From IMG/VR virus record IMGVR_UViG_3300020193_000003: a stretch of 64,000 nucleotides of DNA; one strand, given 5' to 3'. The position numbers and the translations under genes are program-made. A model generated the notes under the pieces. It searched no databases. It was not told where the DNA came from and was given only the letters and a program-made list of their open reading frames with translations. Shown piece after piece: positions 14,183 to 50,099 of this stretch (positions are counted from its first letter, which is position 1; each line of letters opens with the position of its first letter). The stretch is from a virus.

Positions 14183-16933
14183 ATGACTCGTAGAAAGATA
14201 GGTTTTGGGCGCAGGGGTCGCGACTCGTTCGTCGACGACAAGACCGACGTCGCCCTGTCGTCCGTGACGCAGCTGGCGGAGACCTTGAGGACGAAGGTCA
14301 TGCGACCCATCGGCGCCGGGCTCCTCCCCCCGCCCCACCTGGTGAGGAACGCCGACTCGGACCCCTACATCTACGAGGGGATCCCGTGGATCAACAGGGG
14401 CCGCGGGATAATCGACCCGACGCCAGGCAACGTGCAACCACTCAACAGAAGGCTGAGAAGGGAGGCGCAGGCAAACCTCGGAACCCCGGCGCGAATCGTC
14501 GCGATGCGACCAAGTCCCATGGTCACCATGAGCCACGCGGACGGGCCCGTGGCGGCCATGGTCGATCCGAGAATTCTGTCTCGCCCAGAGAACATCATCC
14601 CGATCGACGAATTCTCGGGGCCGATGCAGGAGATTGAAACCCGCGTCGACGCGATTCTCGGGCCCAAACCGGCGACGCTCAAGGAGGCGACGGACAACCT
14701 CAAGAAATTGGAGAACATCGTCAATTCGGGGGTCGCCAACGGCAACAACTTCCTGCTTGACCTCCCGTATTTTGCGGCGCAAATGCAACCAGGGTTGGCT
14801 CGGGTCAGCCCCAGGTTTGCCGGGCCGGCCACGCCGATGTCCAGTTACGACTACGGGTTGTACTACGGGATTGCGGTCAACCTGATCGATTATCCCGAGG
14901 CCTTCAGGGATGTTCATTTGACGATCACGACGATCAACAATCCCGACGAGCAAACCCCAGAAACAATTGGGGCGAACACGGCGTCCCCGCCGTCCTACTT
15001 CAAGATTTCCCCGAAATCCGAGTCCAGGAGGGAAGTTCCGGGAGGAACGCCCATGATGCTCCTGAGTCAGGTCAGGGCGGACACCGGTGTCAACGACATG
15101 TCGGGAGCCAAAATTCACCCAACCGGAGGGAAAGCCACCACCGGCGCGCGCCTGCCGCAAATCGTTTCCTTTCCCACATACAAGAGCGACGGCCAGAAGG
15201 CAACCAAATTGATGTACGGCCAACAAGCCATCCACGAACTTGAAATTCCGGAAGATTACATTGAGAAATTGGAGCAAAATCTGGCTTTTTGGGAAAAGGT
15301 CCTTGCGGCGACGGGGGTGGCGCGACAATCGCTCATCGACTCCACGGTCTCGTCCGTGGCGCTGGGTTATTTGCAGGAAATGCAAAACCTGCAAGGGAAA
15401 ATATCGCAACTCAAAGACATGACGTCCCAAACGCCCCATCCGAACGCCCTGCAGTCGGTCCGGGCGCTGGAACAGAGAATGTCGGAACTCTACTCCGAGT
15501 CCCAAAAAGCGGTCGCGATGGTGACGGCGATGCACGAAATGGGCCACGTGCTCGACTATGTGGGCGAGTACAGAAGCTCCCCGGACTATTTGAACGCAAT
15601 CGCCCAGACGTCCAGTGGCTTGAACAGCCAGTACGAGATGGATCGCGACTTGGGCGTCGCCCAAGCAATTGCACAGGGTTTGGACCACCCCATAAAGGCG
15701 GACCTAGCGGAAAATCTGTCAAGGAAGTTCGTCAAGGAAAAACTCCTGCAAATGATTGGGATCATATCCAGGAGGAAATCATTGCCGCAGGTGCGGGCGA
15801 TGGCGCAGGTCGTCGGAGACGGGCTCATGGCGATGGATGCCTCCCTGAAGGGCATGCTCCGCAAGCGGGCTTCCCCGGCCGACACCGAATCCGACGTCAA
15901 AATTGTCACTCGCGTTTGGTACGACATCCTCGCCCGCGAAGTGGGCGACATCAACAGTAGAATTATGCCGGGAACGCTGATCGCGCCGCTTGTCAACTCG
16001 CAAGTTATTGAGCCCAGGCTGGTGTCCGATCCAGCGAAATTGACGAAGATGGCCGAACAGGCCATAAGCCAGATCAGGAAAATAGGGGAGGACAGCATCG
16101 CCGCGTTCGCCGACCCCGGGGCCAGAGAGCAGTACGACTTCTACGTTGAATCCATAGATGCCCTCATCAAGGCGGCGGAGGAAAGAATCAGTCTCTTTCC
16201 TCGTCCCCAACAACGTGCGATCGCACTGGCGGTGACGGCGATAGCGGCCCACAACAGCTACCTGGAAGGGTTCAAAGCCTTCATGCTCAACACGAGCCAG
16301 GAGATGAATGATCTAGCGCAGGAAGAACAAGCTCTCGCGTATCTAGCCCCCTGGTTCGGGAACAACGTTACCCAGGAGGACATGGACCAGGCAGTCCTCA
16401 ACAACGGCAGGAAGATCATGACCGATTTGTTGACCGTCAACCCCGCGATGGTCCGGGAGTTCATGGAGATCTACGGACGCAACGAAGGCAAACCGTGGTT
16501 TGACGGCGCCGGAGCGTTTGATGCGACCGAGTACCTGAAGGACATCCTGGGGGGTGGGCCAAACAACCTGAAGGGCATAACTTTTGCCGAGCTGGTGATG
16601 GTGATAAACCAATGGCACGGAACCCAAGGAACCAACGGTTGGAAGAATCTCACCGACAAGGAGATAGGGCTCATTCGGTCCGCCGTTGACAAACTCACCG
16701 AATACGGCGGTCCGGCGGATTACGATTTCGTGATTCCTTTGCCAAAGTTCCAAATGTCAACCAACAAGGAAACCTACGCCGAGCTGCATCCGATGATCCT
16801 GATGAGAATGGAGCGAATGTTGCAAAGGCTCACCGCCGAGGAGAGGCGAGCGGTGGAGCGTCTGTACGAAGAGATGATCGCAAGGGCCAGAGCCGTCATA
16901 AACCGCACCAACCAGGGAGGCACAACGCCATGA
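14183..16933 (+). CDS. 916 aa protein with the shared N-proximal NADSDP...DPTPG motif and a zincin-like metallopeptidase domain
   Basis: HEMGH at 15533 with distal NKETYAE; PPPHLVRNADSDPYIYEGIPWINRGRGIIDPTPG at ~14327-14428. Confidence 0.8.
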   Translation: MTRRKIGFGRRGRDSFVDDKTDVALSSVTQLAETLRTKVMRPIGAGLLPPPHLVRNADSDPYIYEGIPWINRGRGIIDPTPGNVQPLNRRLRREAQANLGTPARIVAMRPSPMVTMSHADGPVAAMVDPRILSRPENIIPIDEFSGPMQEIETRVDAILGPKPATLKEATDNLKKLENIVNSGVANGNNFLLDLPYFAAQMQPGLARVSPRFAGPATPMSSYDYGLYYGIAVNLIDYPEAFRDVHLTITTINNPDEQTPETIGANTASPPSYFKISPKSESRREVPGGTPMMLLSQVRADTGVNDMSGAKIHPTGGKATTGARLPQIVSFPTYKSDGQKATKLMYGQQAIHELEIPEDYIEKLEQNLAFWEKVLAATGVARQSLIDSTVSSVALGYLQEMQNLQGKISQLKDMTSQTPHPNALQSVRALEQRMSELYSESQKAVAMVTAMHEMGHVLDYVGEYRSSPDYLNAIAQTSSGLNSQYEMDRDLGVAQAIAQGLDHPIKADLAENLSRKFVKEKLLQMIGIISRRKSLPQVRAMAQVVGDGLMAMDASLKGMLRKRASPADTESDVKIVTRVWYDILAREVGDINSRIMPGTLIAPLVNSQVIEPRLVSDPAKLTKMAEQAISQIRKIGEDSIAAFADPGAREQYDFYVESIDALIKAAEERISLFPRPQQRAIALAVTAIAAHNSYLEGFKAFMLNTSQEMNDLAQEEQALAYLAPWFGNNVTQEDMDQAVLNNGRKIMTDLLTVNPAMVREFMEIYGRNEGKPWFDGAGAFDATEYLKDILGGGPNNLKGITFAELVMVINQWHGTQGTNGWKNLTDKEIGLIRSAVDKLTEYGGPADYDFVIPLPKFQMSTNKETYAELHPMILMRMERMLQRLTAEERRAVERLYEEMIARARAVINRTNQGGTTP

Positions 16934-17298
16934 ACGACGAGGAATTTATCAAAATAAGACGGGAAATAGAGTCGATGACCAAAGACGATATCCACACCAA
17001 ATTCAATTTGCCCAGAGAGATGGACTTGAGCGAGTTGCCGATGATAGACGCGACCGCGGACAGGTTCTTCCCACCACGCGTCCATCCGTTGGCGAAACAG
17101 ATGGTTGCACGCCTACTGGACCATTCGATTCAAAATGGAGATAGTCCGTTGCAAACAAGGATAACTATGTCAATTGCTGTACCGATTATCGCAAAAGCGT
17201 TCGCGGGCGGAAACGAGGCGACCTCGGTCGACCTCGAGATTGACGAGCTTGAGCGAATCGGCGACAAAATACGGAGGTTGATCGACGATGAAAACTGA
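16930..17298 (+). CDS. Small acidic hypothetical protein (122 aa)
   Basis: ATGA overlap with the upstream ORF. Confidence 0.7.
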   Translation: MNDEEFIKIRREIESMTKDDIHTKFNLPREMDLSELPMIDATADRFFPPRVHPLAKQMVARLLDHSIQNGDSPLQTRITMSIAVPIIAKAFAGGNEATSVDLEIDELERIGDKIRRLIDDEN

Positions 17299-17863
17299 TG
17301 ACACGGGAGTGAAGGCGGATCCGCTTGGCGGCCTGCTGCCGCAGGAGGTCGTCACCGGCGACATAATGCGCGGCTACGGCCCGCGGCGCGGGAACCTCGA
17401 GCGGTTGCTGCGCTACTGGAGACCGATAATGAAAAAGCCTGGCGGCTTCCGGAGATGCAGGGTGATCCTGGCGAACCACCCCGAGCTCTACCCGCTGAAC
17501 AACATCTGCGCCTGGTTGCACCACGAGACGACGGGCCTCTGGCCCAACGAGGGTTGCCACCACCCGGGGATGAAGAACTGCAGGAGGAAGTTGCGCGGAG
17601 TGGTGAACGGGTCGCTGTGGAGCGACTCGGATTTTGACGACCGCATCAGGAAGCTGACGAGGAGGGTGACCAAGAAGAAGGACCTTCGGTCCAGCGGTGG
17701 AATCGACGCGGCGCCACCGTACGAGCCGTTCGTCCCCGTCATCACCGACGACGACTGGGACCACGCCTGGAAGGTCATGGACGACTTCGTGAAGATGGAG
17801 ACGAAGTTCGTCGCATTCGTGTGCGACGACAACAACTGGGAGATGTTCGACTCGGATGTATGA
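17288..17863 (+). CDS. Head-region protein with a Cys/His motif (LxRYW...PGGFxRC...CAxLHxxxTGxWP)
   Basis: Overlaps both neighbours in the operon; the motif resembles, from memory, one in actinophage head-module proteins. Confidence 0.65.
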   Translation: MKTDDTGVKADPLGGLLPQEVVTGDIMRGYGPRRGNLERLLRYWRPIMKKPGGFRRCRVILANHPELYPLNNICAWLHHETTGLWPNEGCHHPGMKNCRRKLRGVVNGSLWSDSDFDDRIRKLTRRVTKKKDLRSSGGIDAAPPYEPFVPVITDDDWDHAWKVMDDFVKMETKFVAFVCDDNNWEMFDSDV

Positions 17864-19949
17864 CCTTACGAAGGCGACCGAGTGCTGTCCCGGCAAGGAG
17901 ACGGTGACCAGGACGATCCTGCCGTCCATCGCCGTCTCGAGGGACAGCGTCTACACCCTCCCGTTGTCCGTGGCGATGAGCAAGCAACATGCGGTCGACT
18001 TCAAGTGCTACCAGCTGGTCAAGGTCGGGCCCCACGCGGAGGTGTACGACCACAGAATCAAGTTCAAGGCCGGTCTCGTCAGGTCGGACAATCCCGCCGT
18101 GCGCGCGGCGCAGGCCGTCGCCGGATCGGTGATCCCGGGCAACCTCTCCAGCTTCAGGAGCCCCGGGCGCTCGGCGATGTGGTCGGCGCTCACGCCCGGG
18201 GGGAGTTCGCCGATCCCGAGGGCTGGTCCCAACCCCCTCGCCAGGGCCGCCGCCGTCGCGTTCCCGAAGCCCGACAGGGGGTTCCGTTGCCCGGAGGGAT
18301 TCCAGTTCGGTGGGCAGTTCACCGACAAGTATTTCTCGACGTGTGGCAAGAAGCTATTCGTCCTCGCCGTGTCCATGCTGACGGGTGGCCCGCAGCAAAT
18401 TCCTCTGAGGTCGCCGCGTCTCACGAGGGAGCTGAACATATCCGGCATCCCGCTCGTCCCGATAGGCAACGCGGGTCAGGTGTCGTTCACGAGGAGCCCC
18501 GACATAGAGATACCAAAGGTCGGCTCGACCAACTTTGGCTCGTACAAGCAGGCGATCAAGAACGTCGCCTCCGAGATGACCGAGAGCACGAAGCCCGTCG
18601 CCAGGCTGGTGAGGAGGGACGGCGTCGTGCTCACCCCGCTGGTATCCCCATCCGTCCTGAGGACCGTACCCGACAACAGGAACATGGAGGATGCCGCTTA
18701 CATCTCCTACGTCGTGAAGCCGACGCAGATCGGTGGGCGGGAGCTGGGGATGTTCTCTAACAGCGGAATCAACTCGCTGGTGTATGTGCTCCCCAACGGT
18801 GGGACGCTCACCCTGAGGAAGACGCGCAACCTGAGCAACGGTGAGAGACGCAAGCTCGGCAAGCTCGTGGCCGAGGCGGAGAGGATGCAGAATGGCTCAG
18901 ACGCCGCCGCCAGGATCGAGCACATCGTTGCGGAGATGGACGGTCCGATCTCGTACGAGCAATCCTTCGGCGACCTGCGCGGGCCGAACGACATGATCAC
19001 GATAATCGATCCCAAGACGAAAAGGCAGCGACAGATACGGCGCTGGTACAGGGACGCATTCATGCTCGACAAGGCCCCCAGCCAGACCTCCTCCCGTACA
19101 ACGCAGATAGAGGACGAGGCCGGGATGGTCGAAGACCTCAGCTCCGCCATAGGCATGCTGAACCAGGGCGGCCAGATCGGCAACATATCCCCAGAGTTGC
19201 GAATCCCCGCGATGGACATGAGCAGGGTCGCCGAGAGCAGGCGCCTGAACAACCGCACGACCAACTACAGGATCGGGGACGAGACATTCATCGCCGTCAC
19301 TCCCACCGTCGCCAACGAGCACATCGGGGTGATGGTCGCCGCCGAGGTCCAGTCGCAGCTCGGGGCCCTGTCGCCGGAGGTGTGGTTCGCCGGGTCCGGA
19401 TCGCGCAGGCCGTACATCATCTCCTACCCAGACGACTCCGAGTCGCTGGGACGGTTCGCCAGGAGCACCGGCATGGACCTTGCCGACCCCGAGGACATGG
19501 TGAGGTTGATGATCGCCGACGTGCTCACGGACGTTCGCGATCGCAACCCGTCAAACCTCTTCACGGTCGGCGACACTTTGCGGAAGAGGACCTTCGCCGG
19601 ACCTGTCGCATCCTCCGGTGGGGCTGGCCTGACGCGCGACGAGCTTGGCAGGAGGGTGAACGCCCCGAAACTGGTGGTGCTGAACGAGATCGAGAACTCG
19701 ATGTACCGGGATTTCTTCATGCGGCTGCGAAAGGAGCAGAGGAGGCGCGCGGAGGCGCTGCTCGAGGAGTTGCTTGAGCGGGCGAGGAGATTCGATATGG
19801 GAGAATTCTTCAGGCGCATGGCGATAGACGGAAGGCTCTCGGAGGCTGAGCGCAGGCACATGGACATAGTCAAGGCAATATACGAGAACAGGGTGAGGAT
19901 CCTCTCCGGCTCCCTCAAGTTCGTGAGGAACGTAATAAATGGAATCTGA
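17856..19949 (+). CDS. 697 aa protein: N-terminal RCPxG...FTD...C motif and C-terminal HipA/PI3-4-kinase-like domain
   Basis: EHIGVMVAAEVQSQLG...MIADVLTDVRDRNPSNLF (DRN at 19539, like the DRHxxN catalytic loop); EDEAGM separator (ATG 19125) directly precedes this module. Confidence 0.7.
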   Translation: MYDLTKATECCPGKETVTRTILPSIAVSRDSVYTLPLSVAMSKQHAVDFKCYQLVKVGPHAEVYDHRIKFKAGLVRSDNPAVRAAQAVAGSVIPGNLSSFRSPGRSAMWSALTPGGSSPIPRAGPNPLARAAAVAFPKPDRGFRCPEGFQFGGQFTDKYFSTCGKKLFVLAVSMLTGGPQQIPLRSPRLTRELNISGIPLVPIGNAGQVSFTRSPDIEIPKVGSTNFGSYKQAIKNVASEMTESTKPVARLVRRDGVVLTPLVSPSVLRTVPDNRNMEDAAYISYVVKPTQIGGRELGMFSNSGINSLVYVLPNGGTLTLRKTRNLSNGERRKLGKLVAEAERMQNGSDAAARIEHIVAEMDGPISYEQSFGDLRGPNDMITIIDPKTKRQRQIRRWYRDAFMLDKAPSQTSSRTTQIEDEAGMVEDLSSAIGMLNQGGQIGNISPELRIPAMDMSRVAESRRLNNRTTNYRIGDETFIAVTPTVANEHIGVMVAAEVQSQLGALSPEVWFAGSGSRRPYIISYPDDSESLGRFARSTGMDLADPEDMVRLMIADVLTDVRDRNPSNLFTVGDTLRKRTFAGPVASSGGAGLTRDELGRRVNAPKLVVLNEIENSMYRDFFMRLRKEQRRRAEALLEELLERARRFDMGEFFRRMAIDGRLSEAERRHMDIVKAIYENRVRILSGSLKFVRNVINGI

Positions 19950-22900
19950 GACCTTCTTCTCCACGATCACCGACTCGGCGACCAACACGACGTTCGCCGT
20001 CGTCGTCGTCGACGGGGGGAGGGTCACCGCGCACGGGTCCATGAAGCAGGGCAAGGACTGGGCGGACTGGGTGAACCGGGGCAAGAAGTCGTTGGACCAG
20101 GTCTCATTGTCTCTGGATCCCTCGTTGCGCATGTCGAAGTTCGTCCCGTTGACGAGGGATAACCTGATGTCGAGGTACTCGTCCTTCGGCCCGACCACCG
20201 TCAAGGGGCTGGCCAGCATCATAGAGAGCAAGTCCGTCCCCGAGCCCCTCGCGACGAAGTCCGGAAAGCAGGACGCCAAGGCGGCGGAGGTCAACGAGGA
20301 GAAGGCTCCGTCGACGGAGCCGGAAAACGAGCCGGAATCCGAGCCGATAGCGACGTGGCTGCTCGCCGACGTCGGGATAAGCATGTTCGACGTCCAGATC
20401 AAGGCGGAGGCAATCAACTTCAAGGCGAGGCAATTCGCGAGGAACATGGACTTCGCCTCTTTCGTGACCTGCGTCAAGGGGTCGAGGGCGACCGTCTCCG
20501 AAGGTCGTTGGAGGACCATGCCCGTGGTCGGCCGGCAGGTGTCGGACGTTCTCAACAAGTTCGACAGGAAGATCAAGACGGGCGCTTTCGCGCATCTCGA
20601 CAAGCAGGGGTACTTCGAGAAGTTGCTACCGATAGGTATGGCAAACCTGCCCCCGCCGCACCTCGTGCGGAACGCTGACTCCGACCCGTTCATATACGAG
20701 GGAATTCCGTACATAAACGCCGGGAGGGGGATACTTGACCCCACTCCGCCGGGGACCAATCAGGTCGTTCGCGGCATCAGGTCCGTCGGCGGGGTTCTCG
20801 CAGAGATAGTGGACAAGCCGTCGAGGGTCAGAAGAATGACGAGGCGCGAAGACGAGGCGGACCGCCTGAGGTCCATCACCGCGACGACGAACGACCTCAA
20901 CCGGATAATCCCCGACGCGCGGAGCGAGGCGACAGGGCAGAGCAGGCTCAGGAGGAGGTTGTCGGCGCTCACGGACGCAATAGAGCCGGCGAACGTCTCG
21001 CCGTTACGGCTTGATCGCCCGGCGACGAGCAGGGAGAGAAGGAGGGTGCTCGAAGGTCAGGCCCGCATCGCCACGCAGGAAAACCGAACCAGGCGCAATT
21101 TCGCGGCCGACGCAGAGGCCGCGATGAGGAATGAGAGGGGTGACTCCCCGGAGACGCCCTCGGTGGTCAGGGCTGCTGAGCAAAGGACGCCGGGCGAGGT
21201 TGTGCCCAGCTCGGGTGACCCGACGCGCGGCGAGAGGGGGAGCGACCCGGGCGGGAGCGGGGGCGGCCTTCTCAACAGACTCTCCAGGCGATTCTCCAGA
21301 ATCTCCAATCGGATCGCCACCGGCGAAGACAAGACGCCAGAGCCAGACTTCGACGACAGGACCGAGATACCGTCCGCGCCAGTCGAGACGCCGCGCGTGG
21401 TGTCGGAGGACCCGTGGGTCATGGACAGGGACACGAGGGAACGCTTGCTCGCGGCGTTGGTCAAGGCCGTTCAGCCGGGCACGTACGCGACGTTCAGCTC
21501 CAGATTCGGGGAGGACGAGGTGGACTGGCCGGATTTCACGCCGTCCGAGCAGTCGGCGCTCCTGCGCGAGCTTGGGTATCGCCGCGACGAATTGCTCAGC
21601 AACGTAGCGGAACTAATGACTCCCGAGTTTTCGGCGGACAAGGACTACAGAAGCGACGGGGTTGTCACCCCGGAATCGGTGATGGAAGCCATCGCGAACG
21701 ATTTCGTGTCGTTGAGGCCGGGTGGGGTGAACCTGTACGCCGACGTGATGTCTCTCGTGGCGATCAACGACATGCTCTCCTCGAAGGACTTCGAAACAGA
21801 AGCAAGGGCGTCCGCGTGGAGGATGATCGACAACAGGAACAGGAGCGTCGTGTCCAAGAGAGCGGACATTCAGCGCAGGGACGTCAGGGATGCGGGCTCG
21901 ACGAGAATTCAGGGATCAATCGGGGAGAGGACCGTCATAGCGGGGGAACCGCCGAAACAACCGTCTCCAATCAGGCCAATGCTCTCCCTCAGCAAACTCC
22001 AGCCGATGAGGCTCAGGTACCAGCCGGAGAAGCCGGCCGGGATGAAAGAACTGTCCGAGTACTCCGATGTGGAGCGAGAGGCGATACTGAGAAGCGCCAT
22101 AGAGATGAGGGGCAACATCGTTGACTTCCTGCGCCAGAACTTGGGCATCCCGGCTGACACGGAGTTGACCGAGGACATGCTGGCGGATTGGATGTCAAGG
22201 CTGGACGAGCAGACCGCTAAGCGGGTCGGCATGTACGCACACAACCTGATCGTCCTTGACGGCATGATACCCCTGGTCATCGGCTCCGACAAAAATAACG
22301 CAGATGTTCAGTGGTCAAGTCTCACCGAACCGGCGAGGAACAGGATCCTCTCGAATGCGAACGTGGGGCTGGTGCCGCAGGTTCCCAAGACGAACGTCCG
22401 CAAGACCAGAACGCGGCCGCCGAAGCCGCCATCCGCACCGCAGACCAGTGCGACGCCGTCACCAGATGCTCCGACAACAGTGCCCGGCGTGTCCGTGCCG
22501 ATCGGTATGTCAACCGCACCAGGGAAGCTTGACGCCTACAAGGGCGACGTCGTCGGCGACTCACTCGACGTTCTGGATGTCACGGACCAGGTCGTTACCT
22601 GGACCCTCGAGGACGGAACGCAGGAGACCAAACCGATCGCGTCCCTGGGCGCAAACAATCAGTACGACCTAACCAACGCGATCATTCAGGACGGCATCAC
22701 CTACGTGATGGAAAGAAACCTCGGCATCTACAGGGACCCGGCGTCCGGGCTGTACCTGACCGACTACTCGAGGGTTCCGATATCGGTGGACACGACGATA
22801 ACGCCCGCGTCGAGGCTGCTACCGGTGCAGAAATCAAGGAACATGCCGGTGCGAAGCTATCCGCAGATCACCCTGAGGGAGGCGGACGCCAACAAACCCT

Positions 22901-25488
22901 ACGGCCTCAACACAAACATGAAAAAGACGCAGATTGAGATGTTGAGCGAGGTGCTCGGCATAGACGCCCGGCAGGCGCAGGAGCTGGTCGGCAAGGTCAT
23001 CTACTTCGCCCCCAACGTCTCCCCGTCTAGGTCAATGGACAACTTCCGGCAGGCGGCGATGCTGCTGCTGAACGTGTCGTCAATCGGCACGGGGATACCC
23101 GACAGCGAAAAACTCAACTTGCAGTTGCTCGACGTCGTGGACATCCCAGAAGGCTCGGATCAGATCGAGGCCTACCTAAATCACATCGGGAGACCCGACA
23201 TCGCCAACGCCTACGTCGCCGCCGGGAGACCAGCGGATTTCCTCTCGTGGAACAGCTCCGCCAGGAGCGCGGCCAACATACCCGAGTCGCAGATACTCCC
23301 GCAGCACCTAGAGGGGGCTAGGTCAAATACGTACCACCGACGTCGTATGACCTCGATATTCGACCAGGACAAGGACGTCCCGGGAGAAGACACCACCGTC
23401 CTCGTCCCGGGAATGACAGCTGCCGCAAAGCCGAGAGTTCGCAAGATGATCGTCCTGTGGAGGCACCCAGACAACTACATCAGCAAGTCGGGTCGTTACT
23501 ATTATTCTCCCACAAAGACGCAAGCGATCGAGGTGGCGGCGGTCGTCAACAGGGCACTGGCGACCGACGATTCTCGGGACTGGTACCACGCATTCGAGGT
23601 GGTTCGCAGCACCTACGAGACGGCCAAGGCATCCCGCGACGCCTCCCTGAGATCGTGGGAGAGCGCCCAAGGGAATACGAGCAGGACGCCGAGACCGCGC
23701 CGGGAATTCGTCTTGGCCGGCGACCTCGTCGAGCAACTCGAGACAATCATCGCCGACATCTTCGGGCCGAACATGCACAAGGTCGCAGACTCGGTCAGGC
23801 AAGAGAAGGGCCTGCGGGCGAAGATCGCGAACGACATGGGGCGCATGCGCAAGCGGGCGAAGGCTCTCGGTGTCCGGAACGTCGTCGGCCTCGAGGATGG
23901 GGCCCTCATCCCGCCGGTCGACGCCACCGGCAGCCCGCTCCCGCCTCGCTCGCCGCAGGAAATCCTCGCGATGCTGGAAAAGCACCAGTCGCTCGGTTTC
24001 CTGCCGCACATCCCAAGGGACCTGGGGCCCAACGATGCGCTGGAGATATCCGAAATTTCCGATGAGGCGATAAAGACGCTCGCGGCGATCGCCTTCTCCG
24101 TCGAAATGAAGCTGGACCCGGAGACGGGCAGACCGCTGCAGGAAGTGACGCCAGAAACAGTCGACAACAAGTACCTGTTGCACAACGCCATCCAGTTTTT
24201 GACAGGGAACAAGGGGCGCCCGATCACGGTGACCGCAGAAGAATTCCAGCTCCTCGGAACCTCTTTCCTCCCAGACCAAACCGAGAGCGTCGCGCCGGCA
24301 AATTTCCCGTACAACTTCTACATAGTGCGCAGGGGAATCGCACGCTCAAAACGCGGCAAGACCGCCAATGCCATGGCGGAGGACCTCATCAATGGGCCGC
24401 TTTACACCAAGATCGACAGCGGCACCGCCGGCGGCTACGGCCTCAACTTCGCAAGGCCCAACGCTGGAATGGTCGACGGTTACGGGGGCAACGACCCGTT
24501 GGGGGACTTGGTCTTGGCCGCCGTGCCCAAGACGGCGCGCGTCGACAACAGAGTCAGGATGACCGTGCTGTACGCGGAATTGCAGGAGATGTTCGGAGCC
24601 TTCTTCACCAACATCACGCACTTCAACGGAACCGAAAAAACGATGGCGATCGACCTTGACGCCACCAACGACCCGGACTGGAGCGCCGACGACCAGAAAA
24701 ATCCGTTCTTCAGGAGGAGCAGACCGAACAGGGCGCACGCCTACTACGTGCCGCACGGTGGGGAATCTGTTACGGATCACAGGGGCCACCGCGCCTTGGG
24801 CGAGGAACTGACCCTACTTGCGAAAGAAATGGGCGTCACCATCCCGAAAGTAGACACCGCCGATCCCGAGGCGATTAGGGGGCTCGGTAATGTGATCATG
24901 CTCCTTGCCGCCGAGAAATCACGGAGGGAAATCGCAAGAGGGGCTGGCCCGTTCGTAGAAAACGCCACCGCCACCGACCGGGCAATGGACAACCTTGCCG
25001 GGCCGCAATGGTGGAACGCCACGAGGGCGCAGGTCTTCGGATGGATGATCCAAATGGAAATTCTCAAGTCGATGGAGATAGCGAGGATGAAGGCCCTCGG
25101 CAAGGTTCCGTGGAACGACAGAATAGCCGAACTCGTCGCCGCCCAGGAAATCATGACTTACTGGAACGACGAAATCATCCAGGCGATGCTGTTCGGCGTG
25201 GACGTCGGCGCCGCCGACGACAGTTTGCCCCTCACCATGAACCCGGCGAGAATCTTCAGGGGTTACGGAATCGGCAGCCACGTCATGGTCTACAACCGGT
25301 CGGCATTGGTTTTCGTCTCCCGGCCACTCACGCGATCCGGCGAGCTGGCTATCGTGGAGTTGGTGAGGGACCCGAGGATAAGGAAGCCCGGAGAGCCGAG
25401 CATGGTCTGGAACTCCTTCCACGGAAAATGGATAAAGGACCCGGACTACAAATCCAGCGCACCCGCAGACGACGAGGACGGAACATGA
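19939..25488 (+). CDS. Giant protein (1849 aa) with the NADSDP...DPTP motif and a possible C-terminal ADP-ribosyltransferase-like domain
   Basis: Long ORF overlapping the upstream gene; motif at ~20617-20754; DAEAAM (ATG 21124); YIVRRG...GGYGLNFA...VMVYNRSALV (24319-25314). The ART-like call is tentative. Confidence 0.75.
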   Translation: MESETFFSTITDSATNTTFAVVVVDGGRVTAHGSMKQGKDWADWVNRGKKSLDQVSLSLDPSLRMSKFVPLTRDNLMSRYSSFGPTTVKGLASIIESKSVPEPLATKSGKQDAKAAEVNEEKAPSTEPENEPESEPIATWLLADVGISMFDVQIKAEAINFKARQFARNMDFASFVTCVKGSRATVSEGRWRTMPVVGRQVSDVLNKFDRKIKTGAFAHLDKQGYFEKLLPIGMANLPPPHLVRNADSDPFIYEGIPYINAGRGILDPTPPGTNQVVRGIRSVGGVLAEIVDKPSRVRRMTRREDEADRLRSITATTNDLNRIIPDARSEATGQSRLRRRLSALTDAIEPANVSPLRLDRPATSRERRRVLEGQARIATQENRTRRNFAADAEAAMRNERGDSPETPSVVRAAEQRTPGEVVPSSGDPTRGERGSDPGGSGGGLLNRLSRRFSRISNRIATGEDKTPEPDFDDRTEIPSAPVETPRVVSEDPWVMDRDTRERLLAALVKAVQPGTYATFSSRFGEDEVDWPDFTPSEQSALLRELGYRRDELLSNVAELMTPEFSADKDYRSDGVVTPESVMEAIANDFVSLRPGGVNLYADVMSLVAINDMLSSKDFETEARASAWRMIDNRNRSVVSKRADIQRRDVRDAGSTRIQGSIGERTVIAGEPPKQPSPIRPMLSLSKLQPMRLRYQPEKPAGMKELSEYSDVEREAILRSAIEMRGNIVDFLRQNLGIPADTELTEDMLADWMSRLDEQTAKRVGMYAHNLIVLDGMIPLVIGSDKNNADVQWSSLTEPARNRILSNANVGLVPQVPKTNVRKTRTRPPKPPSAPQTSATPSPDAPTTVPGVSVPIGMSTAPGKLDAYKGDVVGDSLDVLDVTDQVVTWTLEDGTQETKPIASLGANNQYDLTNAIIQDGITYVMERNLGIYRDPASGLYLTDYSRVPISVDTTITPASRLLPVQKSRNMPVRSYPQITLREADANKPYGLNTNMKKTQIEMLSEVLGIDARQAQELVGKVIYFAPNVSPSRSMDNFRQAAMLLLNVSSIGTGIPDSEKLNLQLLDVVDIPEGSDQIEAYLNHIGRPDIANAYVAAGRPADFLSWNSSARSAANIPESQILPQHLEGARSNTYHRRRMTSIFDQDKDVPGEDTTVLVPGMTAAAKPRVRKMIVLWRHPDNYISKSGRYYYSPTKTQAIEVAAVVNRALATDDSRDWYHAFEVVRSTYETAKASRDASLRSWESAQGNTSRTPRPRREFVLAGDLVEQLETIIADIFGPNMHKVADSVRQEKGLRAKIANDMGRMRKRAKALGVRNVVGLEDGALIPPVDATGSPLPPRSPQEILAMLEKHQSLGFLPHIPRDLGPNDALEISEISDEAIKTLAAIAFSVEMKLDPETGRPLQEVTPETVDNKYLLHNAIQFLTGNKGRPITVTAEEFQLLGTSFLPDQTESVAPANFPYNFYIVRRGIARSKRGKTANAMAEDLINGPLYTKIDSGTAGGYGLNFARPNAGMVDGYGGNDPLGDLVLAAVPKTARVDNRVRMTVLYAELQEMFGAFFTNITHFNGTEKTMAIDLDATNDPDWSADDQKNPFFRRSRPNRAHAYYVPHGGESVTDHRGHRALGEELTLLAKEMGVTIPKVDTADPEAIRGLGNVIMLLAAEKSRREIARGAGPFVENATATDRAMDNLAGPQWWNATRAQVFGWMIQMEILKSMEIARMKALGKVPWNDRIAELVAAQEIMTYWNDEIIQAMLFGVDVGAADDSLPLTMNPARIFRGYGIGSHVMVYNRSALVFVSRPLTRSGELAIVELVRDPRIRKPGEPSMVWNSFHGKWIKDPDYKSSAPADDEDGT

Positions 25489-25925
25489 GAGATCCCGACG
25501 GAAACCCGAGAGACCCCAACGCAATACGCATGACGGAGCCCGAGCAGTTGGAGATGATGTCCGACTATGCGTCGGTGGCCGAGGACGCGAAGTATCCACC
25601 GTTCACGCTGCCGGGCAACACGAAGGACGAAGATTTCCTTTTGATCCTCTCCAGGGAGTACGACCATTTCCTTTACGGCGAAAAGCCCTACGACTCATTT
25701 CGGGCCGTGCAGGAGGCATACTCGGATGAGCTGGTCGAATCACGCGCGTGGAGGTCGCTTGCGTACTCCCCGCAGGAAGCGGCCATGGAGGTCATCACGC
25801 GATCCCTGAGGGACGCCAGTGTCCCCGCCGAAGAAATCGAGTATCGTGCCGAGAGGCTGTACATCTCGCATGCCAAGACGCAGTACATGGGCGATCTTGA
25901 ATTTTTGCCGTGGGAACAGCTGTGA
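25485..25925 (+). CDS. Small acidic hypothetical protein (146 aa, MRDPDGNPRD...)
   Basis: ATGA overlap at 25485-25488; C-terminal part of track ORF 25008..25925. Confidence 0.7.
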   Translation: MRDPDGNPRDPNAIRMTEPEQLEMMSDYASVAEDAKYPPFTLPGNTKDEDFLLILSREYDHFLYGEKPYDSFRAVQEAYSDELVESRAWRSLAYSPQEAAMEVITRSLRDASVPAEEIEYRAERLYISHAKTQYMGDLEFLPWEQL

Positions 25926-26857
25926 GAGAGAAGGCCACCAGGGAGGACGCCCTCAAGATCGCCCGCTACATGGGTTGCCGAGGGGCTCATCAGGGCGAGA
26001 ACGGGGATTGGTTGCCGTGCGCCGACGCCGAGACGCTCAGTCGTCTGTCCTCGGCAGCGGAGGACGACGCGTGGTTGCTGCGCTTTCAAAAGGACGTGCA
26101 TTCGGGGAACGGACCCGTCGGGGGCGTGGCGGCGAACGTGGACATGAACGGCAGGAGGAAGAGGGGCGTGAGACCGTTCGACGTGCCACCCCCGGAGTTC
26201 GGGGATGGCAAGTCGGCCAACAACTACACGAAGCCGAAACTGAGGGGGAGCATCAAGAATCGCATCATGGCGGGCTCGCAGGGGGGCAAGCCAGGGCAGT
26301 GGTCGGCGCGCAAGGCACAGCTCGTCGCGCAGGAGTACAAGAAGCGCGGCGGAGGGTACAGGGGAAAGAGAACCAAGAAGCAACGCTCACTCTCCAAGTG
26401 GACCAAGGAGAAGTGGACGACATCGGACGGCAAGCCGGCGATACGCCAGGGCGGGACGAGGCGCTACCTGCCAGCCAAGGCCTGGTCAAAGCTGAGCCCG
26501 TCCCAGAGGGCCGCCACCAACAAGAAGAAGCGCGAGGGCAACAAGAGGGGACGACAGTTCGTTGCCAACACGGAAGCCGCGGCGAGGGCAAGAAAGACCT
26601 CCACCAAGTCCGGTTACCCAATCATCGTGAAAAAGACGCTCGTGATGCAGAGATTCACGGAGACGGAGGGTCGCGGACCAGGGCCGCGTCGCAAGAAGAG
26701 GGGCAAGAGATGGGAGAAGCTCACCGAAAGGGGTCCCTCCCAGATCGTTTCGACCCCGAACTTCGGCCTCACATCCAAGTCGCAGTCCATTGATCTGCAA
26801 AAGATCGGCACGGAAGTGAGACAAGTGTTGACGACCTCAAGATTTTTGGCGGACTAA
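25922..26857 (+). CDS. Basic protein with an N-terminal GCxG...WxPC motif and a DUF5872-like domain
   Basis: GTGA overlap start; YTKPKLR...GGKPGQWSARKAQLVAQEYKKRGGGY...RYLPAKAW, recalled as DUF5872. Confidence 0.7.
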   Translation: MREKATREDALKIARYMGCRGAHQGENGDWLPCADAETLSRLSSAAEDDAWLLRFQKDVHSGNGPVGGVAANVDMNGRRKRGVRPFDVPPPEFGDGKSANNYTKPKLRGSIKNRIMAGSQGGKPGQWSARKAQLVAQEYKKRGGGYRGKRTKKQRSLSKWTKEKWTTSDGKPAIRQGGTRRYLPAKAWSKLSPSQRAATNKKKREGNKRGRQFVANTEAAARARKTSTKSGYPIIVKKTLVMQRFTETEGRGPGPRRKKRGKRWEKLTERGPSQIVSTPNFGLTSKSQSIDLQKIGTEVRQVLTTSRFLAD

Positions 26858-26931
26858 CGTCCCGGACGCTTACCTTGAAGTATCCTTATCGGTACTAAAA
26901 GCGCGCCCAAAACGCGAGCGGATGGGAAAAG

Positions 26932-29900
26932 ATGGACGACTCAACAGAACAGGGCGATTGTTGTCCTATCTCGGGGGGGGAAATAGAGCAGAAGGACATC
27001 GCCTTCGGTCCCAGGCGGGTCCGTCCGGATAGTTTTGACGCATACGTTGACAAGGAATCGGCCCGCGCAAGGGCGCGGATGCTTGGGTGCATCGGAATAC
27101 GACAATACAGCTCGACGGCGGGCGGGACCGTCTGGATGCCGTGCAGCAACGAGTCCGACTACAGGAAGGTGACCGGCCAGGACAATTTGTCGCGGAGACA
27201 GCGCAGGAGGATGCTAAAAGCCGCCTTCGCCGACGACCTGGAGACCAAGGCCCTCGGCTCAACCATCGGGACAGTCAGCGGTCAGGTGAACATGAACCCG
27301 TTCACCGCCATAGACGCAGACCTGGACGGTCTCGTACTCGAGGGCCTGCCGCAAATCAACATGGGTCGCGGGGTGCCCGACCCGACGCCGGGAAGGGCGG
27401 AAATTCCATCGGCGCCGACGTCACCCCTTAGGCGGATGGACTGGTCTCCGTTCGATATGGCGCGGCCGACGCAGGAAGTTCCAACGCCGCCCGTTCGCAA
27501 GCGCGATCAGAGGATGAATCGTCCGAGTGCGAAGCTGCGAATGGAGCAGTTCAGGGACAACGTGGAGGCGGCGCTGAAGGACGACCTGTTCGCCAATTCC
27601 TGGCAGAATGCCGTCACGGATTTTATCAACTCGGACATATTGGGGGACGACGACTCCGACCAATATCTCAACCAAAACCTGTACTCCATCGTGGAGGACG
27701 TCGCCTCGAGGGTTGAGTCGGTGGTCGACGAGCAACCAGAGTTTTCTGTGCCGAGGGGTCGCACCCGAAGGGACGCCGCGGACGCAACTTCGGCGCGCCT
27801 GACGGCAAAGGTTCTCGGAACGGTGTCCGAATTGATGAACAATCCGCCGGACGCCATGACCGGGAGGGACGACGTGGTCAGAAGACTGACATCGTCGTTG
27901 TTGGAATCTGGAGCGAGGAGGGTTGCGGACACGGGCGGAAAGCCAGGCGTGTGGGCCTTCCTGATACAGGCGATACTCGGGGGCGCAATCGGAGTCCAGG
28001 GAGGCTGGGAGTTGCTGGCGAGAGTATTCGGAATAGAGAATTCAACTGGCTGGATCCCTCACCCAACCGGGCGCAGTCTCGAAATCCTGTCACCCAGCCT
28101 TGCCAGACAAAGGTCCAACGAGGCAAGGTCGAGGGCCCTCGAGAGGGTCACGAGGACCATGGACGCCCTGCGCAACGCCGGTTTCGCAATAGCCGACGCC
28201 GGGGACATCCCGTCCGTCGCCGACGACATCGCAGAGGTCTTGGACGGAGACAGGTCAACCGACCTTCCGGGTGACCTGTTGCCCAAGGACACCGCCAAGT
28301 CCAGCTCGCTTGACGAAGTGATCAGGAGGATGAGGGAAGCCACGGGCATCAAGGACAGCGTGGCGACCAGGAGGCGCCGAGATACGCGGACATATGTGGA
28401 GGAGGATTTGATCACCAGGAATCGCATGGATCTCGTCGGCATTCCCACTGGGATCCTCGACGTCTTTGATTCCTCGTCGGTCCCCGCACCGACGCCGTCC
28501 GACGGTTCGGCTGCGAGATTGATCACGTCCGGTGGGGTCGACGGTCTGAATCCGATGAACGCCAAACTGCTGTACGACGCCATGAGCGACCAAAACTTCC
28601 TGCGAACCTTCGTCGCCCCGGCCGACTCGCCGTACGCTGCGCAACTGGCGACCCTTATCGAGCAAGGAAGGCTGCCGAAGGTGGTGGCGGCGATACTCGA
28701 GATGTCACCGGAATCAGTGGAGGATTTCCTCGCAGTCAACCCGAGACCACTGATCATGTCGGCAAGATCAGCCAGGAAGAAGTTGAGACCCGCCGGCTCG
28801 TGGATGGCCCGCATAGACCACGATCCGTTTGAGGTCGCGGCCCACCTCATGCGGGCGAAGGACTACCACATTTCGGCGATAGCGAACGGCTCGGACTCGC
28901 CCGTCCTCCTCGACGCCGTGGACGAGCTGGTCGGCAACAACGCCTCCGAGACCTCCGCCATCTTCTCGTCGATAGTGGCCAACAACAAGCAGAGATTGGC
29001 GGACGCATACGACGGGTCGTTGCAACTGGCGCGGTCGGGGAACGGGCTCCTGATGGCGGCGAGAAACCTGATATCAAATGCGACAGAGAACGATTCCACA
29101 TGGAGTGCCTCACGCAACGCAATATCCGACGCGTCCCGGGCGATGGTCTCCGCAGAGGACGTCTCTGCGGGCATGGCGAACACTGCCTCAAGGTACGGAA
29201 GGAACTACCCGAGGCACAGACGCAAGAGCGGCGACTGGTCGCCAATAGCCAACAAGATACGAGACTCGATCAGGCGCTACAAGTCCCGGTATGGCGCCCC
29301 AGCGGCGAACTCGGCGGACTTGGCGAGGTTCGTGGACTTCTCCTACCCCGAACTTCTTGACGAGGCGGCCGAGCTGATTGACCTGATGAAGCAAAAAATA
29401 GAATTCGGATCCCTCGCCATGGCCGATTACGCAAGCGACGGGTGGAGGAACAGGGATGTCGCCGAGCTGGCCCTTGACGAGTTTGACCCGACGAACCTTG
29501 AGTCCATTTTTGACCCGGGTAGCAGGATGGGCCTGCTGAAGGCGATCGGCGTCAACCTGGCGGCGGCGGCCAAGATGGCGCCGTCGCGATCCGAGCGAGA
29601 CGGAGTGATGGACATCCTCGACGAGGTGAACTCCTGGAGCTTCACCGTCCTCCCGCTGTACACGGAGCCGAGGTCCGTGACATCGCGTCGCAGAGGAATT
29701 TTCCCAAGCGTCTCCAGCGACGCCGAGGCTGGCATGACGGTCAACAGGGGGGTCCCGGAGGACATCAGGCAAACGCTCATGTCAAGATCCGCACCGCTCG
29801 GATCCGAAACTGAGGGTACGCCGAAGATCCGCATGAGAAGAAAGTTGATCGAGAGGGCCAACGAGTTGCTCGCGGCAAAGCAGTCAGACGACCTCGTGGA

Positions 29901-47481: not shown

Positions 47482-48086
47482 GCGATCTCCCTCAGGGGGA
47501 GGAGGAAGCTTCCCGCCTCCCACATCAACCCGATCGAGGCGTACCCCATCACGTCCACGACATTGTCCGTGATCGACTCGTTCTTGGGGTCGTCGGTCGC
47601 ACCCCTCGCCACGAGGTTCTCGAGGCGCGCAACCTTGTCCTGGATCCTCACGATCAGCCCGACCCTGCCGAACCTCCTGATGTTTTCGTGGCCGTAGTCC
47701 ATCTGCTTCCTGACCAGAACCCCGTGAACGTGGTCGGCGATGTTGGTGCTCGACATCATGGACGCCGGGCACACCTGCGAACCGAACATCCTCGCGTAGA
47801 AACCCACCTGTCTCCACGCCTCGGTCACCGCGACGACGGGCGCTGAGTTGCGCGACACGATGCCGTTCTCGTTGAACTGCAGGTCTATGAGGGAGTTCAC
47901 GGAGCTCCTGAGCATCTTGAGCGTTCCGTCCACCCCGTAATCCTTCGTGTTGATCATCGGTCGGTAGTGATTGAGATTGAACGGCCTGCACACGTACTGC
48001 CCGCTCGCGTTGGGAAGGAACAGCAGGAGCGCGTTCATCGCGGCATCGTCCCATGTTGAAGCCGTCACCGGATCAAACCTATTCAA
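47478..48086 (-). CDS. Nucleotide-modification-associated domain 1 (DUF1599-like) protein
   Basis: KQMDYG...RIQDKVARLENL...ESITDNVVDVMGYA. Confidence 0.75.
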   Translation of the reverse strand: MNRFDPVTASTWDDAAMNALLLFLPNASGQYVCRPFNLNHYRPMINTKDYGVDGTLKMLRSSVNSLIDLQFNENGIVSRNSAPVVAVTEAWRQVGFYARMFGSQVCPASMMSSTNIADHVHGVLVRKQMDYGHENIRRFGRVGLIVRIQDKVARLENLVARGATDDPKNESITDNVVDVMGYASIGLMWEAGSFLLPLREIA

Positions 48087-49614
48087 GGACGGCCCCGTAC
48101 TTCCTCGCGATCCACTCCGCGACGGGGGCGGCGACGCCGTTGCCGCACTGCTTGTACCTGTGCGTGTCGCTGACTTCCTCGCCTTCGTCAGTCCACCTCG
48201 TGTGGTCCCTCGGCCATCCCATCAGCGCCTCGCACTCCGATGGCATGAGCCTCCTCACGACCATGTTCTGCACTACGCCGCTGGATTGCTTCGTCCCGGC
48301 GCGCAACGAGTGGTGGATCCCGCCGTCCACGAGCCTGTTGTTGTACTCGTCGTACGCGACGGCGCCGTCGGGCTCGATGACGAGATTCTCGCCGCGCGAC
48401 GACGGCACGCCGCCGTCACCGCCGGACCTGAGGGTCATGGCGAGACCGTCGTTGACGTCCGTGTGGGCCACGGCGTGGCCGGCGCCCCCGGTCCTGAGCG
48501 TCGGGAAGGCGATCTCGGACGGCTGGGCGTCGAGGCACTGGGTGTGGGAGAAACCGATTGCCTGTGCGACCATCGGGGTGTTCAGGCCACCCGTGCCCAT
48601 GAACGCCGTGAGCGTGTTCACCGTGTCCCCCTGCATCCTCACGCCGTCCTGCCGGTGCGCGTGGAAGACCATCGTCTCCGGGTACTCGTAGGCGACCAGG
48701 GTCTCGCTGCCACCGCCGATGTCCCCGCCGGCTGCGCGGAGGGTGCCGATCCCGTCTACATACTTGGAGAAGCTCGACTGCGTGAACACTTGGGCGCCCG
48801 ACACGACGAGATCGGTGGCGTCCTTGTGGTCGCGCGCCTTGATGGCGGAGGCTGTCTCGTCGGAGGCGTAGTCGCCGAAACCGCGCATCCTGAACCCCTC
48901 CTGGTCATGCTCGGTTTCTAGTCCGAAGTCGAGTTGCCCTTGTCCCGGTCCTGGTTCTTGTCCACGACCGCCTGCAGCGCCGCCTTCAGCCGGGGAGGAA
49001 GCGTCTTGTTTCTCCTTATCGCCCTTCTTAGAATGCCTGCGCAAGCCCTCGCCGACAGGTAATATCGGGAAGGTACTTCGCTCTGCGGCGCCAGAATCGA
49101 AGAGAGAACACACGAAGATGCGCCTTCGTCGCTGGGGGATTCCGAAGTGCTGCGCATCCAGCACTGCCCACTCGACAGCCACAGCCCCTGCGTCAGCCAT
49201 TTCGTCGAGGACGACCCCGAAGTCAGCGCCTTTGTTGGAGTTGAGGGCTCCTGGGACGTTCTCCCATATTGCCAGTCTTGGAAAAGTTCCGTTTGTTGCA
49301 TCGCGCATCTCCCTGATAATCCGCATTGCCTCGTGAAACAAACCGGACCGAGAACCAGTGAGACCAGCCCTCTTCCCGGCGACGGAAAGATCCTGGCATG
49401 GAGAGCCGAAGTTTATTGCGTCGACTGGCTCCAGCAACCTCCCGTTGACGTCCTTTACGTCGTAGTGCTTCGGAACGTCCGGCCAGTGCCTGCGGAGGAT
49501 CCGCTGGCACTGCTCGTCCCATTCCGCCTGCCATCGGCAACGCCAGCCGGCGGCCTCGAATCCGAGATCGAAGCCACCGACGCCGGCGAAAAGACTGCCG
49601 AAAGTCAGGGTCAG
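48079..49614 (-). CDS. C5 DNA cytosine methyltransferase (511 aa if it starts at CTG 49614)
   Basis: Motif I SLFAGVGGFDLG lies in frame upstream of the track start; IV GSPCQD; VI ENV; VIII PQRRRR; IX RRLMPSECEALMG; X YKQCGNGV. Confidence 0.9.
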   Translation of the reverse strand: MTLTFGSLFAGVGGFDLGFEAAGWRCRWQAEWDEQCQRILRRHWPDVPKHYDVKDVNGRLLEPVDAINFGSPCQDLSVAGKRAGLTGSRSGLFHEAMRIIREMRDATNGTFPRLAIWENVPGALNSNKGADFGVVLDEMADAGAVAVEWAVLDAQHFGIPQRRRRIFVCSLFDSGAAERSTFPILPVGEGLRRHSKKGDKEKQDASSPAEGGAAGGRGQEPGPGQGQLDFGLETEHDQEGFRMRGFGDYASDETASAIKARDHKDATDLVVSGAQVFTQSSFSKYVDGIGTLRAAGGDIGGGSETLVAYEYPETMVFHAHRQDGVRMQGDTVNTLTAFMGTGGLNTPMVAQAIGFSHTQCLDAQPSEIAFPTLRTGGAGHAVAHTDVNDGLAMTLRSGGDGGVPSSRGENLVIEPDGAVAYDEYNNRLVDGGIHHSLRAGTKQSSGVVQNMVVRRLMPSECEALMGWPRDHTRWTDEGEEVSDTHRYKQCGNGVAAPVAEWIARKYGAVLE

Positions 49615-50099
49615 AAGGGTTCTTCTCCGTCGAACGCAGGCTGGTTCGAGCCACCGACCCTCGCAGGTTGCTTGGACTGCGACGAGGTGGTGCCACGGAC
49701 ATTGCCGCGACCCTGCTCCTTGCCGTTGCCTTCGCCCTGTTGGCGCTGCTTGCGGTCAAACTTCTCGATGGAGCGGACCGAGATCCCGATCTCGTCGGCG
49801 AGCACGTGGATGGCCGAGCGCTTCTTGCCCGTCTCCTTGTCGTCCCAGCTCTCCTGCTCGAGGCGGCCGGTCACGGTGACCCGGACTCCCTTGGCGAGGA
49901 TTCCGGCGCCGTCCTCGGCGAGGTTCCTCCAGGCGACGACGTTGAAGAAAGAGGTCTTCTCCTGCTTCTCGCCCTTGGCGTCGGTCCAGTAGTTGTTTAC
50001 CGCGACCGAGAACTGCAGCTTGGCAGTCCCCGAATCGAAGTACCTCACCTCGGGGTCGGCCGTGAGGTTTCCGGTGATTGTTACAGGCGCTAGTGACAT
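49611..50099 (-). CDS. ssb: Single-stranded DNA-binding protein
   Basis: VTITGNLTADPEVRY...FFNVVAWRNLAE...VTGRLEQ; acidic tail DGEEPF; GAGGAGG RBS before ATG 50099. Confidence 0.95.
   Translation of the reverse strand: MSLAPVTITGNLTADPEVRYFDSGTAKLQFSVAVNNYWTDAKGEKQEKTSFFNVVAWRNLAEDGAGILAKGVRVTVTGRLEQESWDDKETGKKRSAIHVLADEIGISVRSIEKFDRKQRQQGEGNGKEQGRGNVRGTTSSQSKQPARVGGSNQPAFDGEEPF

Follow-up and report, generated by a model that had tools for sequence, protein, structure and literature searches.

Signals that bring proteins into phage heads have, to our knowledge, been defined only in a few model phages (T4, P1, and HK97). In HK97, the protease gp4 is said, on the strength of work by Duda, Oh, and Hendrix in 2013, to be encapsidated via the part of the protein that lies behind its protease core. 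We know of no described route by which the giant polyvalent proteins, some of them longer than 5000 residues, enter phage heads. In T4, the internal proteins IPI to IPIII carry a capsid targeting sequence (CTS), a short peptide near the N-terminus that is common to otherwise unrelated head-internal proteins. This sequence is tied to processing by the prohead protease; it both targets and is cut, and foreign cargo can be attached to it (PMC9026906). For the polyvalent proteins found in phages and conjugative elements, Iyer et al. (2017, PMC5512222) predict packaging and injection. The present analysis deals with a peptide motif that occurs four times in a 64,000-nucleotide stretch of phage-like DNA (IMG/VR virus record IMGVR_UViG_3300020193_000003; G+C about 62%). 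That whole stretch is called the window below. The four genes that carry the motif, A through D, all lie on the + strand and flank the gene for an HK97-type major capsid protein. A preliminary description, made from the letters of the DNA alone, had taken the four peptides for a candidate capsid-targeting signal.

By sequence comparison, the four peptides are copies of one widespread motif, a motif that would mark the proteins built into the prohead in a large group of uncultured phages. The peptides had been quoted correctly; they are in-frame translations inside long + strand open reading frames (ORFs), and each does begin at a lysine. When the 12 large + strand proteins of the window were compared all against all by blastp, the motif segment was the sole part shared. 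Copies A and B match at 69% over 51 amino acids (aa; E 8e-18), and both match C (A-C, E 1e-5; B-C, E 6e-5); D was not linked to the other copies by blastp. An independent profile, built from 226 copies in unrelated database proteins, finds D with 41.5 bits (E 6e-15) and C with 22.7 bits (E 4e-9). Judged by that profile, D is a member of the family and the best-scoring of the four. Copies A and B have diverged, scoring 3.3 and 1.6 bits, and join the family via C (by blastp) and via intermediate forms in the loci L009, L010, and L025. A search of all six reading frames of the window with a profile made from the four peptides returned these four only. The core pattern [DN]xDxD[GP]x[ILV]x[ED]G occurs four times in the window, as against none in each of 200 dinucleotide shuffles. 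No further copy was found in the window proteins E and F or in the visible part of the first ORF.

The 226 copies define a linear motif of two parts and about 45-55 residues. The first block, K-[ASG]-[LI]-G-x-x-[IL]-G, is present in about half of the copies, and where it is present its lysine is conserved at 96%. An arginine-rich spacer separates it from the second block, F-D-P-x-A-x-D-[GA]-D-x-D-G-x-[VI]-[QYF]-[DE]-G-T-x-x-E-R-P-A-x-P. Here, the three loop aspartates are conserved at 100%, 97%, and 100%, the glycine that follows them at 89%, and the later acidic residue at 100%. Valine or isoleucine holds loop position 8 in 97% of the family, and aspartate (70%) and proline (77%) stand directly before the loop. 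The conserved core extends over about 26 residues, with D, D, D, [DE], and G invariant; the acidic DxDxDG-type core that the preliminary description had picked out is the invariant part of the motif. Related viral contigs show the window form to be a local variant of this wider motif. In A, B, and C, the tail reads G-[IL]-P-x-I-N-x-G-R-G-x-x-D-P-T-P-G instead of G-T..E-R-P; the tail of D is classical. A further tail variant, D-G-D-G-D-G-x-I-T-N-P-x-T-G-R-D-E-x-P, is seen in two proteins of the S78+DUF6321 type (P0223 and P0271), where it also falls just after the protease core.

The motif is widespread. A profile search of 1.84 billion representative proteins returned 947 clusters at E<=1e-3, 147 of them at E<=1e-10, and the 150 top-scoring proteins are mostly 600-3300 aa long. 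In IMG/VR, at least 480 related viral contigs were found; the phage group that they represent has an HK97-type capsid and an HK97-type (S78) protease. Freshwater samples are a source of these contigs. Species-representative genomes gave only 7 matches, all of them in metagenome-assembled genomes (MAGs). A tblastn search of 50,697 cultured phage genomes with the window copies and one classical copy gave no match. The associated protease family includes one homologue named from an Ilumatobacteraceae MAG, which hints at actinobacterial hosts for the carriers.

Neither Pfam nor NCBIfam, searched at relaxed thresholds with short carriers and window segments, holds a family that covers the motif. 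A profile search of the PDB found no solved structure that covers it, only insignificant EF-hand loops. A full-text literature search for "DGDGDG" gave unrelated nucleic-acid papers only, and 12 of the 27 main-text passages of the polyvalent-protein paper (PMC5512222) that matched a term search hold no description of it. As far as the literature and databases searched show, it is a previously undescribed peptide of the head-incorporation or junction class.

Portal fusions and MuF proteins carry the motif, as do prohead proteases of the HK97 type (S78) and polyvalent effector proteins. A Pfam scan of 35 carriers found Phage_portal in five, ART-PolyVal and GNAT in four each, NUDIX and DUF7178 in three each, Zeta_toxin, DUF3721, and Phage_Mu_F in two each, and Peptidase_S78 and a lethal-factor-type zincin in one each, with other families besides. 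Among prohead proteases with an S78+DUF6321 core, 54 of 120 (about 45%) have exactly one copy, near residue 500-530 and directly past the conserved core.

What stands ahead of the first copy differs from one group of carriers to the next. It is the S78+DUF6321 core in 26 representatives, a family of about 210 aa homologous to the N-terminal 200 aa of window protein B (E down to 7e-8) in 22, and a DUF3721-type family homologous to the N-terminus of window protein C (E 4e-27) in 17; in others, portal domains precede it. In about a quarter of the carriers the first copy lies within the first 17 residues or so, and there no front module exists to target the protein or to be cut off. The motif is portable in this sense, following at least four unrelated N-terminal modules or standing at the very N-terminus. 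Relative to protein length, the median position of the first copy is 0.11, and "N-proximal," as the motif had been called, is apt in the window and family-wide. The statement that its carriers are otherwise unrelated is true inside the window, but the N-terminal modules of B, C, and D are each members of a conserved family that ends in the motif.

The genes that carry the motif lie mostly between portal and capsid. Enrichment next to portal, protease, and capsid genes had been proposed as a test of the original idea, and it is indeed head proteins and the genes between portal and capsid that carry the motif, not non-virion proteins. In 96 loci, all 89 of the 89 profile matches are on the strand of the capsid gene. 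A 109-kb contig presents the order terminase, portal+MuF, S78+DUF6321 (with the motif), large genes, and capsid gene, with six copies in five of the roughly 13 genes between portal and capsid, the S78 protease included. Four large contigs, chosen by the motif alone, agree in gene order. The portal gene is followed by an S78 ORF, whose motif copy comes about 1 kb after the protease domain, then by two or three large ORFs, each carrying a single copy, and last by the capsid gene. The interval from portal to capsid makes up 21-33% of each of these four contigs and holds 14 of their 18 matches; two of the remaining four are in a giant ORF past the capsid gene, and two are weak partial matches elsewhere. 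In G002, a close relative of the window, eight ORFs carry the motif, from the S78 giant through the orthologue of D. A 135-aa ORF in two other genomes (G008:C1:51418-51495 and G009:C1:64666-64737) has the D-x-D-x-D-G core only, at E about 1e-10; it lies upstream of the portal gene, on the strand opposite the head genes.

In the window, large + strand genes follow one another in a row that ends with the capsid gene and then D. Table 1 collects these features.

Table 1. Genes and motif copies of the window, with the number of D-x-E-A-[AG]-M separator sites in each protein.
Feature	Position	Strand	Separators	Remarks
5'-open first ORF	ends 3057	+	2	
3531-aa protein gene	3278-13873	+	2	
Carrier gene A	14183-16933	+	none; no E-A-G-M separator	916 aa; no Pfam or PHROG match
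Motif copy A	14291..14428	+		residues 37-82 of 916 aa; variant type; K-V-M-R-P-I-G ... N-A-D-S-D-P-x-I-Y-E-G-I-P-x-I-N-x-G-R-G-x-x-D-P-T-P-G
697-aa protein gene	17856-19949	+	1	
Carrier gene B	19939-25488	+	1	1849 aa; no Pfam or PHROG match
Motif copy B	20617..20754	+		residues 227-272 of 1849 aa; variant type
Small gene between B and C	25910-26857	+		Cys motif like that of DUF3721, similar to the N-terminus of C; two PHROG matches, both of unknown function
Carrier gene C	26932-42663	+	10	5243-aa polyvalent protein; DUF3721-like N-terminus; C-terminal NUDIX and zeta-toxin domains
Motif copy C	27244..27393	+		residues 105-154 of 5243 aa; K-A-L-G-S-T-I-G ... D-A-D-L-D-G-L-V-L-E-G-L-P ... G-R-G-x-x-D-P-T-P-G
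HK97-type major capsid gene	42959-44362	+	none	N-terminal scaffold (delta) region; Pfam Phage_capsid E 6e-44
Carrier gene D	44508-46877	+	none	789 aa by longest ORF; directly 3' of the capsid gene
Motif copy D	45324..45479	+		residues ~273-324 of 789 aa; classical type; given as 45333-45445 in the preliminary description; K-A-L-G-A-T-I-G ... D-R-D-S-D-G-M-I-F-D-G-T-P-D-E-Q-P
Genes downstream of the head block	48079-54596	-		C5 cytosine methylase, SSB, SNF2-type helicase, helix-turn-helix (HTH) protein; strand switch after D

Protein C has the marks of a polyvalent protein, combining NUDIX and Zeta_toxin domains with its many separators and an adjacent capsid gene. Protein D consists of a Cys-rich N-terminal domain, then the motif, then a long basic Pro-rich tail, and many relatives retain its copy in the gene that follows their capsid gene. 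Residues 19-168 of D (44562-45011) are homologous to residues 315-453 or so of S78+DUF6321 proteases (48-65% identity, E down to 4e-38), a stretch that forms the domain just before the motif of those proteases. Going by this homology, D resembles the rear half of the protease core together with the motif, without the protease itself, and ends in the basic Pro-rich tail. None of the window proteins scanned yielded an S78 protease domain. In the close relatives G001, G002, and G004, this domain stands at the N-terminus of an ORF of 4384-5469 aa, upstream of the region that the window covers, with the motif about 370 residues past it. As read from these three genomes, the prohead protease heads a giant polyprotein in the clade of the window.

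The capsid protein matches HK97 gp5 (PDB chain 3qpr_A) at E 1.5e-51 and has no copy of the motif. Its gene has no tail genes beside it in the window. At least 285 relatives are linked to the window by their capsid protein; among cultured phages, the closest by capsid are Brevibacterium phage Cantare and Gordonia phages (Bendigovirus phages, DalanDe), at about 45% identity. DalanDe and Cantare are without the motif, and their head proteins find no match in the window by tblastn. In the alignment with gp5, the window capsid keeps Lys, Asn, and Glu at the positions read as those of the HK97 cross-link residues, which we take to be K169, N356, and E363. This conservation suggests that the window capsid may form chainmail. 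An alignment of the junction region with 63 relatives shows a further stretch kept by the capsid family, which in the scaffold/N-arm region reads E-F-K-[SA]-L-x-G-G-[RK]-N-G-A-N-M.

The window lineage has a second recurrent peptide, the separator D-x-E-A-[AG]-M, of which 16 sites are spread over five + strand proteins (span 79-42663). In B, the motif lies ahead of the sole D-x-E-A-A-M separator, at residue 393; in C, it lies ahead of the first D-x-E-A-G-M separator, at residue 932. The separators were considered as a family-wide partner of the motif and rejected, as only one site was found among 144 other representatives. They seem, from this distribution, to be specific to the lineage, unlike the motif, which different lineages share. 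In G002, the close relative mentioned above (locus L119, G002:C1:41500-42500), a degenerate motif-like stretch, D-A-D-P-D-G-L-I-Y-E-G, abuts an A-G-M separator; at the same place in the window orthologue (the 3531-aa protein, residues ~1750-1780), the motif-like stretch has been lost.

With AlphaFold, the motif alone gave no fold, at a predicted local distance difference test (pLDDT) score of 57.6. In a model of an S78 protein made with a 64-sequence alignment, the motif region is coil (pLDDT 32-61) between folded domains, and the output, which comprised neither coordinates nor a contact map, gave no sign of docking onto its own protease. With coil and pLDDT values this low, the motif behaves as an exposed linear motif in a flexible linker. 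This linker joins a conserved N-terminal module to variable cargo.

Conservation places the motif in the same position. It is a local conservation peak among orthologues of A, B, C, and D, and in A no 40-aa segment is better conserved (87-95% identity). Residues 121-160 of C share 75-82% identity with orthologues, and residues 161-200, directly behind the motif, only 7-17%. Such a drop marks a border between a constant head part and variable cargo. Family-wide, the ligand pattern of a metal-binding loop is present (D1, D3, D5, and G6, with position 8 hydrophobic and position 10 acidic), and copies C and D have it as D-A-D-L-D-G-L-V-L-E-G and D-R-D-S-D-G-M-I-F-D-G. On the strength of this pattern, the DxDxDG loop is probably metal-binding. 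As to the more specific proposal of a calcium-binding loop, its acidic pattern recurs family-wide, but no significant match to EF-hand or Excalibur families accompanies it.

The best reading of these observations, and one that we advance tentatively, is that the motif is a junction motif for prohead docking, that is, for the loading of cargo, with a probable metal-binding loop at its center. We infer this function from sequence. The acidic block D-x-D-x-D-G-x-[VI]-x-[DE]-G, holding a divalent cation, would combine with the K-A-L-G-x-x-I-G block to make a docking peptide. Its partner would be some conserved part of the inside of the prohead, for which the capsid protein, by its scaffold (delta) region or its inner surface, is the best candidate. 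The shell would then be assembled with the protease, portal-fused cargo, and free cargo inside it. In the window lineage, each giant bears a single copy, in its first segment; downstream modules would be carried in along with it, and would then be separated at the D-x-E-A-G-M sites.

A docking peptide is favored by those copies that stand N-terminally without a module in front of them. It is favored further by a core that is long, invariant, and shaped like a metal loop, longer than the sites that proteases usually need. It is also favored by the position of the motif behind the protease core, where the encapsidation signal of HK97 gp4 reportedly lies.

Encapsulin cargo-loading peptides, which are short and disordered, attach their cargo to the inner surface of a shell with the HK97 fold. 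A wider and more speculative form of the docking idea would make the motif their phage counterpart, a general cargo-loading peptide of HK97-type phage proheads in which a metal-stabilized acidic loop and a short hydrophobic block dock the cargo. Protease, portal-borne cargo, and free cargo would then all be docked to the scaffold region of the capsid protein.

Several points weigh against docking. In some lineages, 2-5 copies stand between the domains of one polypeptide, also after portal domains; one such protein has the order portal, motif, motif, GNAT, ART, motif, zincin. With copies between every module, a separator or processing junction fits these proteins at least as well. Cargo fused to a portal or a protease is already tethered to a head component, and a tag would be unneeded. 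Most single-copy carriers have a conserved N-terminal module ahead of the motif, and that module could itself do the targeting. As to the loop, A and B fit the pattern only in part (N-A-D-S-D-P-x-I-Y-E-G, with N for D and P for G). Searches against known calcium-loop families were not significant (Pfam Excalibur, E 1.6-1.8; calmodulin and EF-hand loops in the PDB, E 0.5-2.4). Three of the carriers looked up (P0024, on a 17-kb contig, and P0012 and P0109, on contigs of 20-24 kb) have replication genes as neighbors, and the 15-22 kb examined showed no head gene. Finally, no cultured phage was found to carry the motif. The multiplicity of copies also speaks against a simple picture of one address tag per protein. 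The original idea is thus supported in part: the motif is a portable hallmark of the head module and a candidate for capsid targeting.

The rival with the most in its favor, which we judge somewhat less likely than docking, is that the motif is a processing junction. Here, the N-terminal modules would bring a protein into the prohead, and the motif would be a recognition or cleavage site of the S78 protease, or a docking exosite for it, so that the cargo is freed. The cut may fall after the conserved lysine (K/A-L-G, the slash marking the cut), much as HK97 gp4 cuts gp5 at K103/S104, a site in an unstructured stretch (PMC10275583). Several features suit such a role. The motif sits exactly at the border between constant and variable parts, after portal and S78 domains as well as between every module of multi-copy proteins; it occupies an exposed flexible linker; and where the first block is present, its lysine is nearly always kept.

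The HK97 site itself, N-K/S-L-G-S-D-A-D-S-A-G, is where the best local match of the motif profile to gp5 falls, and capsids of the family keep E-F-K-[SA]-L in the scaffold/N-arm region. That match is, however, not significant, at -0.7 bits, and the window capsid has T/S-M rather than K/S-L at the cut aligned with that of HK97. As the profile matches neither gp5 nor gp4 significantly, we do not claim that the motif copies or mimics the gp5 cleavage site. Copies at the N-terminus would free only a few residues when cut, the lysine-bearing block is absent from about half of the copies, and an invariant acidic block of 26 residues exceeds what a cleavage site needs. Moreover, the window lineage already has a genome-specific separator of its own in D-x-E-A-G-M, with 16 copies in five proteins. 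Docking and processing are, by analogy with the T4 CTS, which both targets and is cut, not mutually exclusive.

The sharp fall in identity right behind the motif between close relatives, where the regions behind it are far less conserved than the front modules, also suits a passive junction. On this explanation, the motif would be a metal-binding flexible hinge and a conserved stretch for recombinational swaps of cargo cassettes, with no specific protein partner. The DxDxDG pattern and the predicted disorder of the region agree with it. Conservation over 947 clusters and several unrelated contexts speaks instead for selection on the peptide itself, a hinge needs no invariant G-T..E-R-P, and the restriction to head-module genes is left unexplained. 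A passive junction is, on balance, improbable.

We give still less credence to a role after assembly, in which each module would have its own signal for leaving by way of portal and tail or for acting inside the infected cell, for example by binding a host factor. Multi-copy proteins do have one copy per module, and carriers of the motif are polyvalent effectors of a kind predicted, in the pertinent passages of PMC5512222, to be injected with the DNA. Against this, the motif is carried also by the prohead protease and by D-type proteins, which are not obvious injected effectors, and it has no similarity to a known host-interaction motif.

FrpC contains a calcium-dependent module that processes itself at an Asp-Pro bond. 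That the Asp-Pro bond before the loop (F-D-P-N-A-x-D-G-D-G-D-G in the classical form) is cut autocatalytically on calcium binding is very improbable, for although Asp and Pro directly precede the loop in most of the family, Asp-Pro is missing from this position in all four window copies, no similarity to a known self-processing module was found, and the motif is far shorter than such a module.

A peptide common to prohead protease, portal fusions, and cargo, found in at least 947 clusters of proteins and in no fewer than 480 viral contigs, is a concrete candidate for the step by which such proteins enter the head. In metagenomes, it is a marker for annotating head-internal and injected proteins. 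Were it a true docking tag, it would offer a portable handle for loading chosen proteins into HK97-type shells.

How does the motif compare with the systems already described? The likeness to encapsulin cargo-loading peptides is one of function only; those peptides are usually C-terminal and short, with another consensus. EF-hand and Excalibur loops (D-x-D-x-D-G-x-x-C-E) share with it D1/D3/D5, G6, the hydrophobic residue at 8, and the acidic residue at 10, all invariant or nearly so, but the motif has neither the flanking EF-hand helices nor the Excalibur cysteine. Polymorphic toxins have demarcation motifs, such as VENN in CdiA and the Rhs junction. These, too, are short conserved motifs at the border between a constant N-terminal and an exchangeable C-terminal part; they belong to secreted toxins and are other motifs, whereas the context here is the phage head. 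With the polyvalent proteins, the resemblance lies in the carriers, which are giant chains of many domains, NUDIX, zeta-toxin, ART-PolyVal, GNAT, and zincin among them. The motif itself is a linker feature, not a catalytic domain.

With HK97 gp4, the capsid and protease families are the same, and in both cases a stretch past the protease core would bring the protein into the prohead. That stretch of gp4 is a C-terminal tail without similarity to the motif, and no cargo follows it. The T4 CTS is confined to the first 10 or so residues, is neither acidic nor loop-like, binds the scaffolding core, and is cut after Glu by a protease of the gp21 type. The motif studied here has no sequence similarity to it. 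It is longer (about 45-55 residues), in two parts, sometimes multi-copy, and usually internal, lying within residues 37-330 in the window; the window copies begin at residues 37, 227, 105, and ~273, well past the first 10-20 residues that a T4-type signal occupies. The phages that carry it pair their S78 protease with an HK97-type capsid.

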